From the NCBI GenBank assembly GCA_028534125.1, contig CM052816.1:18230001-18294000 (forward strand): a stretch of 64,000 nt of DNA, given 5' to 3'. This stretch comes from Lama glama. Its lineage: Eukaryota. Under the pieces are notes generated by a model. The model did not search any database. It was not told where the DNA came from and saw only the letters and a list, made by a program, of their open reading frames with translations. The position numbers and the translations under genes are program-made. Below are positions 10,097 through 58,890 of the stretch, piece by piece; position 1 is the stretch's first letter, and each line of letters opens with the position of its first letter.

Positions 10097-11034
10097 TTCT
10101 GACTGAGATTTTTGGCTGGCCCAGACTCAAGTTCCCTAACTAGCAGACTCTTGAGTCCTTCCTAGTACATCACTGCTCTAAAACAAAGAAGTCAGGAGTG
10201 GGAAAGCTTGACCTTAAAAGGACAAGAACTATGGTGTCATAGCCCTTCTCCCTGTAGGAGTTCCAGCCCAGGGCCCTGCACCATGAAACCATGATGCGTC
10301 TCTCATGGAAAGGACTGTCAAGCCCTGTTTCAAGAGTATGAAATCCTCCTGATGTCCGCTGGGCATCTACTTAGAAAAATGGACAAAAGGAGCAGGTGCT
10401 GAAGAGAAGCTGCTGTGGGATCAGTTAACCTCGGTGCAGAGTTGCACTGGCAGCCTTCCCATTCACTTAGCAGAGGATATTTTACAATAATTTCCACCCT
10501 GTATTTTGGGTTCTGTGACTCCAGCTCCTCAGTACTGCTGGCTGCCAGCCCCTGGGGTCTTCTGGGAGCAGCTCCTGGCAGCTGCATCCAGAATGATGGT
10601 GAACAGAGGCCCAACTGGATGTGGCGACCATGCTGCTAGCATAGCTGTGGTCTCGGAAGTCAGGAGCAGGCCAGGTGGCTGTGCCTGGAATGAGGGCAAC
10701 AGAGCACTTGAGCTACCAGGCCAGGTGGTGAACAGCTCAGGGTTCTGACTAGTTTGTCTGAGGTGCCAAGAAATGCAGAATGCTTAAAGTGACCTGGGAG
10801 GTCCTCTCTCAACATCCGTCTGCTCAAAGTCCTGAAGCCGCTCAGGGAAAACTGATTCCTGGCGTATAAACAAGCTTATTTTCCTTCTCTGAGACTATCT
10901 CCTGAGGCTGGACATTACTGGAAAATATACAAATAGAGATGATCAAGTCTAACTTTCTGCTTCCTGACATTTCTCATTGCTATGATGAGAAAGGAAACTG
11001 AGTACAAATAATAGCAATAATAATAATAATAAAA

Positions 11035-11424: not shown

Positions 11425-12075
11425 GTTATCTACTGTTGGTGAGAGTGTACGCTGGGACAACTGCTTTGGAAGAAACACTGGCATCATTTACTCAGTTGAA
11501 GATCTACCTATCCCATGATTCAGCAATTCTACTGCTGGGTATATGCCCAAGATAGATGTGTGCACATGTGCAGCAGAAGAAATGTACAAGAATGTTCATG
11601 ACAGCAGAATTTGTGACAGCCCTAAACTTCAAATAACCCAAAAGTCTATCAATAGGAGAACAGATACCACAGAATGCCACACAGCAATAAAAAGCAACGA
11701 ACCCAGTTACGTACAACAACATGGATGAATGTTGTACTCAGGAAGCTAGACACAAAGAACACATGCTGTATGATTCAGTTTACTTCCAACTTCAAACAGA
11801 CAGAACTAAACTACAGTGTTTAGAGATTCATACTTAGGGGATAAAATTAGTAAGTGGACCAAGGAAATGATTACCATAAAAGTAAGAGAAGTAGGGAGGG
11901 GGAGGGAAGTGGTCATAATGGGTAGAGGCTGGGAGAGGCTTACAGGATGCTGGCAATGTTCTGGTATGAAGGTAGTTACATATGACTTGCTTTATAATAA
12001 TTTGTTAAACCAAACATGTATATTTAATGCATTTTCTATATGTGTACAATATTCTATAATAGAAATGGTTTAAAA
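11425..12075 (+). mobile_element. Old L1M (MC/MD/ME-type) 3' end
   Basis: cagcaattctactgctgggtatatgcccaa..aagaatgttcatgacagca..acaacatggatgaat. Confidence 0.8.
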
Positions 12076-12270
12076 ACAAGTTTATGGAAGGAAAAGGCAA
12101 AAAAAATGCAACTCTTGCTTTCAAATTCAGGCTAAAAAATCTTGATAAGCAGCTCATTTTAAGACATTTTAACTGACATAATCTGTCACCTCTGGAGTCA
12201 CTGCCACCCTCTTTGCTGATCTGAAACTCCCCTACTCCCACCGTTTTAAATCATTAATGTTTTTCTTCTT

Positions 12271-12285
12271 AAAGAAATGTTTCCT
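12271..12285 (+). repeat. 5' target-site duplication of the BMP4 retrocopy (aaagaaatgtttcct)
   Basis: Identical 15-mer at 13137-13151; preceded by ttctt, giving an L1 endonuclease-type TT/AAAG site. Confidence 0.95.
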
Positions 12286-13136
12286 GGAAGATGCAAGAAG
12301 GCAGAGGAGGAGGGAGGGAGGGAAGAGGAGCGGAGCTCCGCCCGGAAGCTAGGTGAGTTTGGCATCTGAGCCGAGGGACGTGAGCCTGCGANNNNNNNNN
12401 NNNNNNNNNNNNNNNNNNNNNNNNNNNNNNNNNNNNNNNNNNNNNNNNNNNNNNNNNNNNNNNNNNNNNNNNNNNNNNNNNNNNNNNNNNNNNNNNNNNN
12501 NNNNNNNNNNNNNNNNNNNNNNNNNNNNNNNNNNNNNNNNNNNNNNNNNNNNNNNNNNNNNNNNNNNNNNNNNNNNNNNNNNNNNNNNNNNNNNNNNNNN
12601 NNNNNNNNNNNNNNNNNNNNNNNNNNNNNNNNNNNNNNNNNNNNNNNNNNNNNNNNNNNNNNNNNNNNNNNNNNNNNNNNNNNNNNNNNNNNNNNNNNNN
12701 NNNNNNNNNNNNNNNNNNNNNNNNNNNNNNNNNNNNNNNNNNNNNNNNNNNNNNNNNNNNNNNNNNNNNNNNNNNNNNNNNNNNNNNNNNNNNNNNNNNN
12801 NNNNNNNNNNNNNNNNNNNNNNNNNNNNNNNNNNNNNNNNNNNNNNNNNNNNNNNNNNNNNNNNNNNNNNNNNNNNNNNNNNNNNNNNNNNACACACACA
12901 CACACACATCCATCCACTACTCACCTACACACTACACAGACTGCTTTCTTATAGCTGGACTTTTATCTTAAAAAAGAAAAAGGAAAAAAAAACCTAAACA
13001 TTCACCTTGACCTTATTTATGACTTTATGTGCAAATGTTTTGACCATATTGATCATATATTTTGACAAAATATATTTATAACTACGTATTAAAAGAAAAA
13101 ATAAAATGAGTCATTATTTTAAAGGTTAAAAAAAAA
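12286..13136 (+). pseudogene. BMP4: Processed retrocopy of BMP4 mRNA (retrogene or pseudogene; CDS hidden in N gap)
   Basis: 12286-12391 (ggaagatgcaagaaggcagaggaggagggaggg..cccggaagctaggtgagt..ggcatctgagccgagggacgtgagcc) matches recalled mammalian BMP4 exon-1 5' UTR. 12892-13127 ((CA)n..cactacacagactgctt..cattcaccttgaccttatttatgac..gcaaatgttttgaccatattgatcatatattttgacaaaatatatttataactacgtattaaaagaaaaaataaaatgagtcattattttaaaggt) matches the BMP4 3' UTR. AATAAA at 13100-13105, A-tail from 13128, 15-bp TSD. Confidence 0.92.
12392..12891. other. Assembly gap of exactly 500 N
   Basis: Read directly. Confidence 1.
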
Positions 13137-13151
13137 AAAGAAATGTTTCCT
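13137..13151 (+). repeat. 3' target-site duplication of the BMP4 retrocopy
   Basis: aaagaaatgtttcct directly after the A-tail, identical to 12271-12285. Confidence 0.95.
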
Positions 13152-56365: not shown

Positions 56366-58890
56366 ACATCTTCATTATCCATTTATCTGTTAATGGATAC
56401 TTAGGTTACTTCCTATCTTGGCTATTGTAAACAATGCTGCTATGAACACTGGGGTGTATGTATCCTTTTGAATTACTGTTTTTCTTTTTTATTCTGATAT
56501 ATACCCGTGAATGGAACTGCTGGGTCATATGGTAGTTCCATTTTTAGATTCTGAGAAACCCTGTACTGTTTTCCACAGTGACTGCAACAATTTACATTCC
56601 CATCAACAGTATATGAGAATTCTCTTTTCTCCATGTCCTTGCCAACATTTGTTATTTGTGTTCTTTTTGATGATAGCCATTCTGAGAGGTATGAAGTGAT
56701 ATTCACTGTGGTTTTGATTTGCACTTCCCTGATAATTAGCAATGTTAAGCATATTTTCATGCACCTATTGGCCATCTGCATGTCCTCTTTGGAGAAATAA
56801 CTATTCAGGTTTTCTGACTATTTTTAAATTGGGTTGATTTGATGTTGAATTGTATAAGCTATTTATATATTTTGGATATTAACCCCTTAGAATCAAATCA
56901 TTTACAAGTATTTTCTCCCATTCAGTAGATTGTATTTTCATTGTGTGGATGGTTTCCTTTGGTGTACAAAAGCTTTTAAGTTTAATTAGGTCTCAGGTGT
57001 TTATTTTTGCTTTTATTTCCTTTGCTTTAGTAGATGGAGCAGAAAAAAAAACCTGCTACAATTCATGTCAAAGAGTATTGTGCCTATGTTTTCTTCTAGG
57101 AGTCTTATGGTTTCCAGTCTTACATTTAGGTCTTTTAATCCATTTCAAGTTTATTTTTGTATATGGTGTTAGGAATATTCTAATTTCATTCTTTTACATG
57201 CAGCTGTCCAGTTTTCCCAAGAGACTCTCTTTTCTCCATTGCATATTCTTAACTCCTCTGTTGTACATTAACTGACCATAAGTGCATGGATTTACTTCTG
57301 GGCTCTCTATTCTGATTTCCACTTATGTATGTGTCTGTTTTTGTGCCAATACCATACTGTTTTGATTACTGTAGCTTTGTAGTATAGCTTGAAGTCAGGG
57401 AGTGTGATTGCTCCAGTTCTGTTTTTCTTTCTCAAGATTGTTCTCTATTGTGTTTCCATACAAATTTTAAGATTATTTGTTCTAGCTCTGGGAGAAATGC
57501 CATTGGTATTCTGATAGGGACTGCAATGAATCTTGGGTAGGTTGCCTTGGGTAGTATTGCCATCTTAACAATACTCTTTCAACCCAAGAACATGGTATAT
57601 ATTTCCATCTGTTTGCATCACCTTCAATTTCTTTCATTAGTATCTTACAGTTTTCTAAGTACAGGTCTTTTATTTCCTAAGGTAGCTTTATCTCTAGGTA
57701 TTTTATTCTTTTTCATGTGATGGTAAATGGGATTGTGTCCTTAATTTCTCCTTCTGATAGTTCATTATTAGTGTATAGAAATGTAACAGATTTCTGTATA
57801 TTAATTTTGTATCCTTCAACTTTAACAAAATCACTGATGTGCTCTACCATTTTTCTGGGAGCATCTGTACGATTTTCCACGTATATTATCATTTTATCTG
57901 CAAACAGTGACAGTTTTACTTCTTCCTTTCTAATTTGGATTCCTTTTATTTCTTTTTCATGTCTGATAGCTCTCATTAGGACTTCCAATACTATGTTGAA
58001 TAAAAATGGCAAGAATATGAATCCCCGTTTGTATCTGATCTTAGAAATGCTTTCAGTTTTTCACAATTGAGTAGGATGTTCAGTATATATGGTCTTTATT
58101 AAGTTGAGGTATGTTCCCTCTATGCTCACATTCTGGAGAGTTTTTATCATAAAAAATGTTGAATTTTGTCAGAAGCTTTTCTGCACCTATTAAGGTGACC
58201 ACATGGTTTTTATTCTTTAATCTGTTAATGTGGTGATTGATTTGCAGATACTAAAAAATCCTTGTATCCCTAGGCTAAATCCCACTGATCATCGTATATG
58301 ATCCTTTTAAAGTAGCATTGGATTCAGTTTGCTAAAATTTTGTTGAGGATATTTGTATTTATGTTCCTCATGACATTGGTCTGTAATATTTGTGTGTGAC
58401 ATCTTTGTTTTGTTTTGGTATCAGGGAGATGCTGGCCTCACAGAAAGAGTTTGGAAGCCTTCCCTCCTCTGCAATTTTCTGGAATAGTTTGAGAAGAACA
58501 GGTTAACTCTTCTCTAAACATTTGGTAGAATTCACTTGCAAAGCCATCTGGTCCTAGAATTTTGTTTATTGGAAGTTTTTATATTACTGATTCAATTTCA
58601 TTCCTGGTAATTGTTCCGTTTAAATATTCTATTCTTTCCTGGTTCACTCTTGGGAGTGAACATTTCTAAGAATTTGTCCATTTTTTTCTAGGTTGTCCAT
58701 TTTATTGGCTTATAGTTGTTTATAGTACTCTTTTATGATCTGTTGTATTTCTGTGGTATCAGTTATAACTTCTTCTTTTTCACTTCAGATTTTATCTTTT
58801 TTTCTGGTTGAGTTTGGCTAAAGGTTTATCAATTTGGTTTATCTTTCAAAAGAACCAACTTTTAGTTTCGTTAACCTTTTCCATTATTTT
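55841..58890 (-). mobile_element. About 3-kb 5'-truncated L1 (ORF2 plus 3' UTR)
   Basis: Minus ORFs give ORF2 peptides ([54 protein letters not shown]); T-tract at left end. Confidence 0.95.
56288..56363. repeat. Compound (TG)n(TA)n microsatellite inside L1
   Basis: Read directly. Confidence 0.95.

Follow-up and report, generated by a model that had tools for sequence, protein, structure and literature searches.

Processed pseudogenes generated by the L1 machinery are a common product of mammalian genomes, and most retrocopies are 5'-truncated. The BMP4 copy described here shares with them the absence of introns, the location on a chromosome other than that of the parent, a poly(A) remnant, a 15-bp target-site duplication (TSD) at a TT/AAAA-like site, the lack of a promoter and apparently neutral change. 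Unlike typical members of this class, it is unusually complete, reaching the 5'UTR and an extra 5' G, and its entire 408-codon frame is still open, the parent being a strongly conserved morphogen. The dog FGF4 retrogenes on CFA18 and CFA12 are reportedly expressed and are said to cause chondrodysplasia. Both systems are recent, full-length, L1-mediated copies of a gene for a secreted developmental signal, with an intact frame, in a domesticated mammal; however, the dog copies are described as expressed and with a phenotype, whereas the BMP4 copy has, as judged from its substitutions, a dN/dS that appears to be near ~1. A further comparison is offered by the equid LCORL retrocopies, likewise derived from a growth-related gene in a domesticated ungulate and found via spliced copies, although these are, by the title of the report, ancient and segmentally duplicated, while the BMP4 copy is young and occupies a single locus in the assembly (PMC10249811).

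Another related system is an alpaca marker. In the mapping report (PMC7288448), FISH with two BACs, CHORI-246 17I20 and 63L14, placed alpaca BMP4 at VPA3q13 and not on VPA6. Human chromosome 5 is given there as the sole syntenic partner of camelid chromosome 3, two VicPac3.1 scaffolds are matched by BMP4, and the VPA3q13 signal was interpreted as a BMP4 gene within a newly recognised block of synteny to human chromosome 14. The locus analysed here resembles this marker in its camelid host, its human-5-syntenic chromosome, the presence of BMP4 at two places in the assembly and the 170-bp product expected of the published primers on spliced sequence only. The difference is one of interpretation, since the mapping report speaks of a BMP4 gene in a new block and the present locus, whose identity with the mapped one is inferred, is a retrocopy. 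In our literature search, no description of a camelid BMP4 retrogene was found. The reading favoured here, which we hold to be highly probable, is that of an L1-mediated processed BMP4 retrocopy of a South American camelid, young, drifting neutrally and likely FISH-mapped as alpaca BMP4.

Structure and origin of the BMP4 copy

The insert lies in a 64-kb stretch of DNA, the whole of which was analysed and is called the window (Table 1). A perfect 15-bp TSD had been claimed in a sequence-only reading of the window, and this was confirmed: with up to one mismatch allowed, the 15-mer has exactly two matches in the window, a number reached in none of 100 dinucleotide-preserving shuffles of it. The target, TCTT/AAAG on the + strand, reads CTTT/AAGA on the strand that is primed. 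The L1-endonuclease consensus is TTTT/AA-like on the primed strand and, by this consensus, the target is an L1-endonuclease-type site, in agreement with the same reading.

Table 1. Positions of the BMP4 retrocopy and its insertion hallmarks within the window
Feature	Position	Strand	Description	Basis
Left TSD copy	12271-12285	+	15 bp, AAAGAAATGTTTCCT, target TCTT/AAAG	read directly
Retrocopy 5' end	12286-12391	+	BMP4 exon-1 5'UTR; 12287-12391 identical to parent	
500-N placeholder	12392-12891	.	~1,552 real bases by overlapping contigs	
Retrocopy 3' end	12892-13127	+	BMP4 3'UTR; begins within (AC)n run	
AATAAA polyadenylation signal	13100-13105	+	hexamer also in parent	read directly
Poly(A) remnant	13128-13136	+	9 A; none at parent locus	
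Right TSD copy	13137-13151	+	15 bp, AAAGAAATGTTTCCT, identical to left copy	read directly

The two ends of the insert carry bases that are absent in the parent. At the 5' end this is a G (12286), possibly copied from the mRNA cap, and at the 3' end a T (13127), located directly after the last parent-shared base (13126), which lies 21 nt past the AATAAA. The following A-run (13128-13139) comprises 12 A, the final three of which can equally be assigned to the TSD. The A-tail that had been noticed about 22 nt past the AATAAA is, thus, present at that place, but the tract is short, a T followed by 9 to 12 A. In addition, the 3'UTR of the retrocopy holds a run of nine A where the parent on C8 holds ten. 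The insert had also been described as GC-rich in AT-rich surroundings, which holds for the 5' piece (63% GC, CpG observed/expected 0.72) but not for the 3'UTR piece, which is AT-rich and resembles its surroundings. Between these two pieces lies the N run, the sole gap in the window, behind which the remainder of exon 1, exon 2, the entire 408-codon frame and the first part of the 3'UTR lie in spliced form. Since this gap is a placeholder, the insert measures 866 bases as assembled, while its real length is ~1.89 kb.

Both flanks of the gap match a second locus at ~100%, namely G000:C8:38376679-38376783 for bases 2-106 of the 5' piece (100% identity) and G000:C8:38377378-38377613 for bases 1-235 of the 3' piece. 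Upstream of this parent locus there is a GC-rich promoter, a sequence that the retrocopy does not have, and downstream there is plain genomic sequence (AAACTATG...) with no A-run. The copy on C1 and the parent on C8 are, therefore, separate loci, the former devoid of parental promoter and neighbours. The parent locus is likewise collapsed to a 500-N gap in the assembly. The gap in the window was filled with tiny contigs of the same assembly by an overlap chain, the path L010>L055>L036>L031>L026>L023>L008>L006, which runs unbroken over 1,949 nt from the left flank to the 3'UTR held in the window. At its beginning, contigs L009 and L010 contain the left flank of the window, the TSD and the 5'UTR, and extend into the gap. 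The exon1/2 and exon2/3 junctions are contained in L055, and the exon3/4 junction in L037-L039, L043 and L029-L031. The introns of the parent gene, contained in contigs L049 and L032, all have GT-AG borders and measure 3,015, 1,053 and 953 bp. In the copy, they are removed exactly at the splice sites in three of three cases, and none of them is present in the spliced contigs. The search for exon–exon junctions and for introns behind the gap that the sequence-only reading had proposed thus found every junction spliced, and its view that the copy spans nearly the whole mRNA stands, the copy starting within exon 1 and reaching the polyadenylation site.

The attribution of the flanks to BMP4, made in that reading, is borne out by the C8 locus and by the coding contigs that continue the flanks. 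The translation of L024 (149 aa) matches protein clusters with the name BMP4 at 100% identity and BMP2 clusters at 74%, and the matched proteins bear PF00019 and PF00688. The closest solved structures to the BMP4 translation are BMP2 mature domains, and BMP2 of this genome is a separate locus on C22 with 67% identity.

The complete and exact loss of the three introns, the poly(A) remnant and the 15-bp TSD agree with the L1-type retrocopy initially proposed and suggest an L1 mechanism of insertion. A mature, fully spliced BMP4 mRNA would have been reverse-transcribed by the L1 machinery through target-primed reverse transcription, and the cDNA would have landed on another chromosome, in a region that is AT-rich and poor in genes, in a South American camelid lineage. 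This would have left a copy of ~1.89 kb that lacks the BMP4 promoter, starts within exon 1 and ends at the usual polyadenylation site. Both amino-acid changes and the decay of CpGs would since have accumulated in it at the neutral rate, the frame being open so far.

The host had been taken for a camelid, and two of two single-exon proteins tested, PRNP (263 aa) and PRND (178 aa), are indeed exact matches to Vicugna pacos records, while Camelus PRND is identical at 176 of 178 residues and differs at two. The assignment holds at the level of South American camelids (Lama/Vicugna) and covers alpaca, llama, guanaco and vicuna alike. One further marker, a protocadherin gamma-A2-like frame, scores higher against Camelus proteins (98.4-98.5% identity) than against the annotated V. 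pacos protein (94.5%), with five differences private to the query; paralogy is the suspected cause of this disagreement, the gene family being large and the region fragmented in the assembly, and the frame was set aside for the assignment. The cytochrome b family search yielded nothing but degraded nuclear copies, in which frameshifts and, under the mitochondrial code, stop codons occur. Regarding genomic setting, the window is located at 18.23 Mb of C1 (102.0 Mb), on which the glucocorticoid-receptor N-terminal domain is encoded at 13.25 Mb and the clustered protocadherins occupy 14.82-15.11 Mb. The glucocorticoid receptor and the clustered protocadherins are both presumably at human 5q31 and, by these marker positions, the retrocopy falls within the camelid chromosomal region that is syntenic with human 5q31. 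The insertion had been judged fairly recent, and this fits the at most 14 SNPs and two small indels that separate copy and parent over ~1.89 kb (>99% identity). On a rough clock, this divergence would correspond to an age of ~1-4 million years, and its low level suggests that the insertion may be lineage-specific.

Reading frame, substitutions and the question of function

The 408-codon frame runs from an ATG at path position 503 to a stop at 1727. No BMP4-like contig contains a stop or a frameshift, and the variants are all single-base changes, with no codon affected twice. Ten of the 13 coding SNPs are non-synonymous (M7K, M9T, R46H, R69C, A114T, V152M, R226W, R245Q, R302Q and A371D) and three are synonymous, which gives a crude dN/dS of ~1.0. 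Under an omega of 0.2, at least 10 non-synonymous changes among 13 would arise with a probability of 0.008, and under an omega of 0.1 with a probability of 1.3e-4, so omega values of 0.2 or less are rejected, whereas 0.5 is compatible with the 13 changes (P = 0.22). Moreover, seven of the 14 SNPs are CpG transitions, as judged from their sequence contexts. The frame is, hence, intact and dN/dS is not clearly below 1, as purifying selection would require; the excess of non-synonymous changes together with the CpG transitions points to a copy that drifts neutrally.

The phasing of variants was restricted to those within ~110 nt of a flank or a splice junction. Three of the changes, M7K, M9T and V152M, lie at most 85 nt from a splice junction and occur in spliced contigs only, and intron-bearing contigs retain at codons 7, 9 and 152 the residues of BMP4 from other mammals. 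At least one allele may depart from BMP4 at as few as about four residues. Adjacent variant pairs occur on spliced contigs in all four combinations, more than one diploid locus can hold, and the surplus may represent extra collapsed copies. The existence of more than two retrocopy alleles, as suggested by haplotypes of tiny contigs, was nevertheless rejected, since a control showed such combinations to be unreliable: four 227-nt contigs (L058-L061) pair a T found only in the retrocopy (path position 200) with parental intron 1, thus mixing copy and parent. No contig in the assembly joins the promoter to this T. Three database proteins considered as carriers of the retrocopy residues (P0002, P0004 and P0005) were also discarded as exon-4 read-through models; P0005 comes from manatee, and P0002 and P0004 mismatch the residues of this genome.

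The copy appears to sit on both homologues of the sequenced animal, given that the assembly holds no empty-site contig and both flanks are single-copy there. Its presence in other animals was assessed from sampled 31-mers, with, by our own estimate, a ~6% chance that no sampled word crosses the junction. All 42 sampled words of a 500-base stretch at the left junction were found in 14 DNA runs from six studies under four organism labels. At most one of these 14 samples is the source of the assembly.

The alternative that survives best, although we regard it as unlikely, is a working retrogene, i.e., a second expressed BMP4 under the control of a neighbouring promoter or of promoter activity remaining in the CpG-rich 5'UTR, which would add a BMP4-like ligand in some tissue such as the reproductive tract or the hair follicle. 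The completeness of the copy, its intact 408-codon frame, its occurrence on both homologues and in runs under four organism labels, and the conservation on the translated path of the motifs RRRAKR and RISR, which we take to be the BMP4 cleavage sites, all speak for such a function. In addition, of the words sampled from the 500-base junction stretch, fractions of 0.62 and 0.45 are present in the RNA-derived contigs of two RNA-seq runs labelled as reproductive system (X15 and X16). These shares exceed what the 106-base UTR part supplies, so the flank is present in these contigs; the signal could stem from transcripts that run through the copy, from intronic pre-mRNA or from DNA carry-over. In four further RNA runs (X17-X20), the shares are 0.24, 0.12, 0.12 and 0.05, which are small or equal to that of the UTR part alone and do not count as evidence of transcription. 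Against a working retrogene stand the ten non-synonymous versus three synonymous changes (crude dN/dS 1.0), the radical nature of some of them at conserved places (R69C, R226W, and A371D beside the cystine-knot CC), and the seven CpG transitions among 14 SNPs, as expected of methylated, unconstrained DNA. Furthermore, the parental promoter was not carried along, the 1.9 kb upstream are CpG-depleted (observed/expected 0.07-0.35), and none of the 129 stop-to-stop frames of at least 70 aa in the window matches a cellular gene family that might act as host gene; their single Pfam match is a reverse-transcriptase fragment (RVT_1). A GC-rich patch at 10.4-10.8 kb was considered as a promoter and rejected, since its CpG observed/expected of 0.07-0.25 is not that of a CpG island.

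Of the earlier suggestion of a possible second BMP4 gene, the open frame, found in every contig, is retained, but the 10:3 ratio of changes fits an absence of constraint. The copy is, therefore, most readily understood as a processed pseudogene of recent origin with a still unbroken frame rather than as a second working BMP4 gene, the presumed lack of function being inferred from the substitution pattern. A more specific form of the functional alternative, which is more doubtful still, is that a transcribed BMP4 retrogene, specific to their lineage, exists in South American camelids and that its allele with the fewest changes (K7, T9, M152 and Q302) yields a secreted, cleavable BMP4-like ligand under foreign regulation. 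If true, expression in, e.g., reproductive tissue or skin would supply an extra dose of the morphogen that could play a part in fibre, skeletal or reproductive traits, and the many derived alleles would form a segregating series of weakened versions.

The alpaca mapping anomaly and the assembly

The published alpaca assay can be placed on both forms of the gene. The primers, as given in PMC7288448, yield 170 bp on the spliced contig L055, the size reported, and 3,185 bp on the parent contig L049, and the forward overgo matches the spliced form only. Since the reported size is obtained only from the spliced copy, the FISH signal at VPA3q13 is probably that of the retrocopy, assuming that the sequenced animal and the alpaca share the insertion. 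The other explanation of the signal, put forward tentatively in that report, is a DNA-level rearrangement that moved a BMP4-bearing block from the homologue of human chromosome 14 to camelid chromosome 3. It could account for the two BACs mapped to VPA3q13 and for BMP4 sequence on two VicPac3.1 scaffolds (PMC7288448). However, the copy on the chromosome-5 homologue lacks introns, promoter and neighbouring genes and has a poly(A) remnant and a TSD, the intron-bearing BMP4 gene is elsewhere, on C8, and the published PCR assay yields 170 bp from spliced template only; a rearrangement is already contradicted for this genome and is very improbable.

Equally improbable is an artefact of assembly or library without any real insertion, by cDNA contamination or a chimeric join, as could be suspected from the 500 N that replace the body of the copy in the scaffold, the equally collapsed parent locus and the impossible allele combinations on some graph-edge contigs, since the unique flank continues into the 5'UTR within contigs, as do the 3'UTR and its A-run into the other flank, the insert is bracketed by a perfect TSD that contamination cannot produce, the spliced contigs have their own fixed differences from the parent, and 14 runs of six studies carry every sampled word of the junction stretch.

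Significance for llamas and alpacas

As such, the young, neutrally drifting retrocopy favoured here is ordinary, and its value is practical. BMP4 is a dosage-sensitive morphogen, and this is a full-length copy of it with an open frame, though the substitution pattern argues against function. The copy already broke both loci into 500-N gaps in the assembly, and it offers a simple, testable explanation for the published puzzle of alpaca BMP4 mapping. Moreover, fibre traits in llamas and alpacas have BMP4 among their candidate genes and, because the copy is >99% identical to this gene, exon-based PCR, SNP arrays, read mapping and association studies of BMP4 in these animals will be confused by its presence.

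The BMP4 copy and its parent gene

The two copies of AAAGAAATGTTTCCT are the only matches to this sequence in the 64 kb with one mismatch allowed, and two matches were reached in none of 100 dinucleotide-preserving shuffles. The insertion target is TCTT/AAAG which, by the consensus that we take for the L1 endonuclease, is a site of the L1 type. Both pieces of the insert match a second locus of the same assembly at ~100% (G000:C8:38376679-38376783 and 38377378-38377613), and this locus is the parent gene because a GC-rich promoter region, missing from the window copy, lies upstream of its 5' piece, its 3' piece is followed by AAAGGT and then by ordinary sequence with no A-run, and the duplication is absent there. 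The window copy starts with a G absent from the parent, which would fit a copied cap nucleotide at the true 5' end of the transcript. The gene body on C8 is also replaced by a gap of the same size as that of the window and, thus, both gaps are fixed-size placeholders. About 6.5 kb of parent exons and introns is left only in tiny contigs without a place in the scaffold, including L049 and L032, the two intron-bearing contigs of the parent (introns of 3,015, 1,053 and 953 bp, GT-AG in all three). With the locus on C8 collapsed, BMP4 would be lost or garbled in a gene prediction run on this assembly.

The assembly comprises 1,072,352 contigs, the majority of them tiny and with 199-base overlaps. 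The translation of one of these, contig L024 (149 aa), is 100% identical to clusters named bone morphogenetic protein 4, versus 74% for BMP2; among solved structures, BMP2 mature domains are the nearest to it. A search of the genome with a full-length BMP4 protein taken from the L024 matches gave 78 matches at E <= 1e-5, in which the BMP4-like ones are confined to tiny contigs; BMP2 lies apart from them, on contig C22, with 67% identity to the query. An exact-overlap chain of spliced contigs (L010, L055, L036, L031, L026, L023, L008 and L006, in this order) connects the left flank with the 3'UTR of the window over 1,949 nt, which puts the insert at ~1.89 kb and the sequence behind the 500 N at ~1,552 bases. 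In this path, each of the three BMP4 introns is excised exactly, with the exon–exon junctions found in contigs of the same assembly and the gap free of introns. The insert is a processed retrocopy covering almost the whole BMP4 mRNA. The sequence-only reading, which had recognized BMP4 in the flanks and proposed a nearly full-span mRNA copy behind a 15-bp duplication at an L1-type site, is borne out on these points; the A-tail that it described after AATAAA is present, although short, and the GC-rich composition holds for the 5' piece but not for the 3' piece.

Features of the retrocopy, its parent and its surroundings (plain coordinates refer to the window; G000, the assembly; C1, the contig with the window; C8, the contig with parent BMP4)
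Feature	Location	Strand	Remarks
Target-site duplication, left copy	12271-12285	+	AAAGAAATGTTTCCT, direct reading
Target-site duplication, right copy	13137-13151	+	AAAGAAATGTTTCCT, direct reading
5' piece	12286-12391		106 bases, 63% GC
N gap	12392-12891		exactly 500 N; sole gap of the window
3' piece	12892-13127		236 bases, AT-rich
AATAAA	13100-13105		between duplication copies
A-run	13127-13139		T then 12 A
GC-rich patch	10400-10800		52-58% GC; 1.5 kb upstream of insertion
RVT_1 (reverse-transcriptase) fragment	57716-58060	-	E = 3.3e-9
SPARC-type calcium-binding exon	C1 7.19 Mb
Glucocorticoid-receptor N-terminal domain	C1 13.25 Mb
Clustered protocadherin array	C1 14.82-15.11 Mb
Protocadherin gamma-A2-like variable exon (L066:380-2860)	G000:C1:14880380-14882860	-
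SPARC-type calcium-binding exon (L074)	G000:C1:17907704-17907910	+	17.91 Mb
The window	C1 18.23-18.29 Mb
Collapsed true BMP4 locus (L013)	G000:C8:38376878-38377377		exon 1, 500 N, then 3'UTR
L049, parent			4,595 bp; exon 1 end, intron 1, exon 2, intron 2, exon 3 start
L032, parent			1,435 bp; exon 3 end, intron 3, exon 4 start
L055, spliced			438 bp; exon1/2 and exon2/3 junctions
L037-L039, L043, L029-L031, spliced			exon3/4 junction
L009, L010			left flank, duplication, 5'UTR, onward into gap
L058-L061, bridging contigs	G000:C929913, C929442, C936079, C935387		227 nt each
Nuclear mtDNA copy L068	G000:C555701:11446-14949		large
Nuclear mtDNA copy L069	G000:C380147:5731-9096		large

Reading frame, alleles and age

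The spliced path is open from an ATG at 503 to a stop at 1727 (408 codons, no stop or frameshift), and no internal stop was found among the BMP4-like contigs from the genome search. Alignment of all contigs on the path yields 14 SNPs and two small indels, one being an (AC) unit and the other A9 versus A10 (A9 in the window, A10 on C8), and phasing was restricted to variants near an anchor, either a flank or a splice junction. Every spliced contig carries the derived base at M7K, M9T and V152M (path 522, 528 and 956), where intron-bearing contigs have the base encoding the residue of another mammal's BMP4. At path 200 (5'UTR) and 842 (A114T), both bases occur on retrocopy-anchored contigs and, therefore, the retrocopy is present as two alleles in the sequenced animal, in agreement with the single-copy state of both flanks and with the finding of no empty-site contig in the assembly. 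The remaining coding sites are R46H, R69C, R226W, R245Q, R302Q and A371D, together with three synonymous ones; at these six amino-acid sites one allele equals the residue of another mammal's BMP4 (P0003), and the derived alleles would by this comparison belong to the retrocopy.

A collapsed duplicate of the retrocopy is conceivable. Adjacent variant pairs that show all four combinations on spliced contigs would, at face value, call for more than two retrocopy alleles, a reading set aside because the bridging contigs L058-L061 reveal such combinations as unreliable. In these four contigs, a retrocopy-only SNP occurs in every combination with a spliced or intron-bearing continuation, including T at path 200 with parental intron 1, which is contradicted by the 5' side, where the retrocopy flank is the sole partner of T and no contig with promoter and T was found. 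Combinations across ~170 nt are thus unreliable and haplotypes were left uncounted. Among the small contigs of the assembly there are, therefore, chimeric or enumerated paths that link near-identical repeats.

Non-synonymous changes account for 10 of the 13 coding SNPs, with a crude dN/dS of 1.0 (942 non-synonymous and 282 synonymous sites), and the probability of at least 10 of 13 is 0.008 at omega 0.2, 1.3e-4 at omega 0.1 and 0.22 at omega 0.5. Read from their sequence contexts, half of the SNPs (7/14) are CpG transitions, and the retrocopy is still CpG-rich (83 CpG in 1,856 nt). This substitution pattern reads as that of unconstrained sequence, probably methylated, and, given the small number of changes, a frame that is still open is what chance predicts. 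With ~9 differences assumed for each haplotype over the 1.89 kb (a smaller number without CpG sites) and with a substitution rate of 1-2e-9 per site and year, a rough clock with wide error would place the age of the retrocopy at ~1-4 million years.

Chromosomal setting and host genome

Contig C1 is 102,007,837 bp long. Its markers, NR3C1 and the clustered protocadherins, which we take to lie at human 5q31, assign the surroundings of the retrocopy to a segment with synteny to human chromosome 5. Judged by their positions, the SPARC-type exons would presumably be those of SPARC and of SPOCK1 (L074), a large gene within which, or shortly beyond which, the window could be located. L074 is the best SPARC_Ca_bdg exon of the genome (89 bits), located 322 kb upstream of the window and on the strand of the retrocopy. 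None of the 129 open frames of the window matches cellular gene families, and their sole Pfam match is the RVT_1 fragment, presumably a decayed LINE. The GC-rich patch upstream of the insertion, unique within the window, was rejected as a CpG island owing to its strong CpG depletion (observed/expected 0.07-0.25).

A probe stretch across the left junction (11892-12391; 42 words sampled) was recovered in full (42/42) in 14 DNA runs with four organism labels from six studies, all flagged as possible assembly sources, although at most one sample can be. Four-fifths of this stretch is flank (11892-12285). In two RNA-seq runs of one study labelled reproductive-system, X15 and X16, the recovered fraction of these words is 0.62 and 0.45, exceeding what the UTR part could account for, so that RNA-derived contigs include some of the flank; the left flank may be transcribed, e.g., as intronic pre-mRNA or read-through.

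The PRNP frame (263 aa) matches major prion protein records of Vicugna pacos exactly, as does the PRND frame (178 aa) a V. pacos record, while PRND of Camelus dromedarius/ferus (176/178 identical) and C. bactrianus are different sequences. Both proteins (2/2) point to a South American camelid, with the four species of the group not separated, in keeping with the earlier suggestion of a camelid genome. However, the protocadherin gamma-A2-like frame ranks Camelus higher (98.4-98.5%, versus 94.5% for the annotated V. pacos protein) and its exon has five residues private to the sequenced genome, a conflict suspected to arise from paralogy or gene conversion in the fragmented cluster. Mitochondrial markers are unusable for species assignment, as broken nuclear copies alone were found (L068 and L069, with ND5, ND6 and CYTB interrupted by frameshifts and by stops in the mitochondrial code), and a search of the assembly found no intact mitochondrial cytochrome b.

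The alpaca BMP4 mapping anomaly

No description of a camelid BMP4 retrocopy or pseudogene was found among the papers listed in the literature searched. According to PMC7288448, alpaca BMP4 was FISH-mapped with two BACs to V. pacos chromosome VPA3q13, where VPA6 was expected; camelid chromosome 3 shares synteny with human chromosome 5 alone; and the BMP4 sequence matches two VicPac3.1 scaffolds, one on chromosome 6 and the unassigned scaffold 33. To account for the VPA3q13 BMP4, it is tentatively suggested there that human chromosome 14 contributed a new synteny block. The same paper gives the reference markers SLC36A1 at 3q12 and ARRDC3 at 3q17-q21 and, in Table S2, BMP4 PCR primers, a 170-bp product size and overgo probes (PMC7288448).

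These primers and overgos were matched against contigs of the present assembly. The primers lie in exon 1 and exon 2 of BMP4, and their product is exactly 170 bp on the spliced contig L055 versus 3,185 bp on the parental contig L049; therefore, the product size listed for the BAC-selecting assay needs a spliced template. The forward overgo matches the spliced form only. By the order of human chromosome 5, as we assume it, the interval between SLC36A1 and ARRDC3 suits a position close to the protocadherin cluster. Assuming that alpaca shares the insertion, the VPA3q13 signal is most likely the BMP4 retrocopy of the window.

The insert is a BMP4 retrocopy of the L1 type, real, young and nearly full-length, in a South American camelid genome. 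As an element it is of an ordinary kind; its frame is open and yet it appears to evolve neutrally. This retrocopy most likely accounts for the published mapping anomaly of alpaca BMP4, and exon-based assays of BMP4 in South American camelids will be confounded by it.
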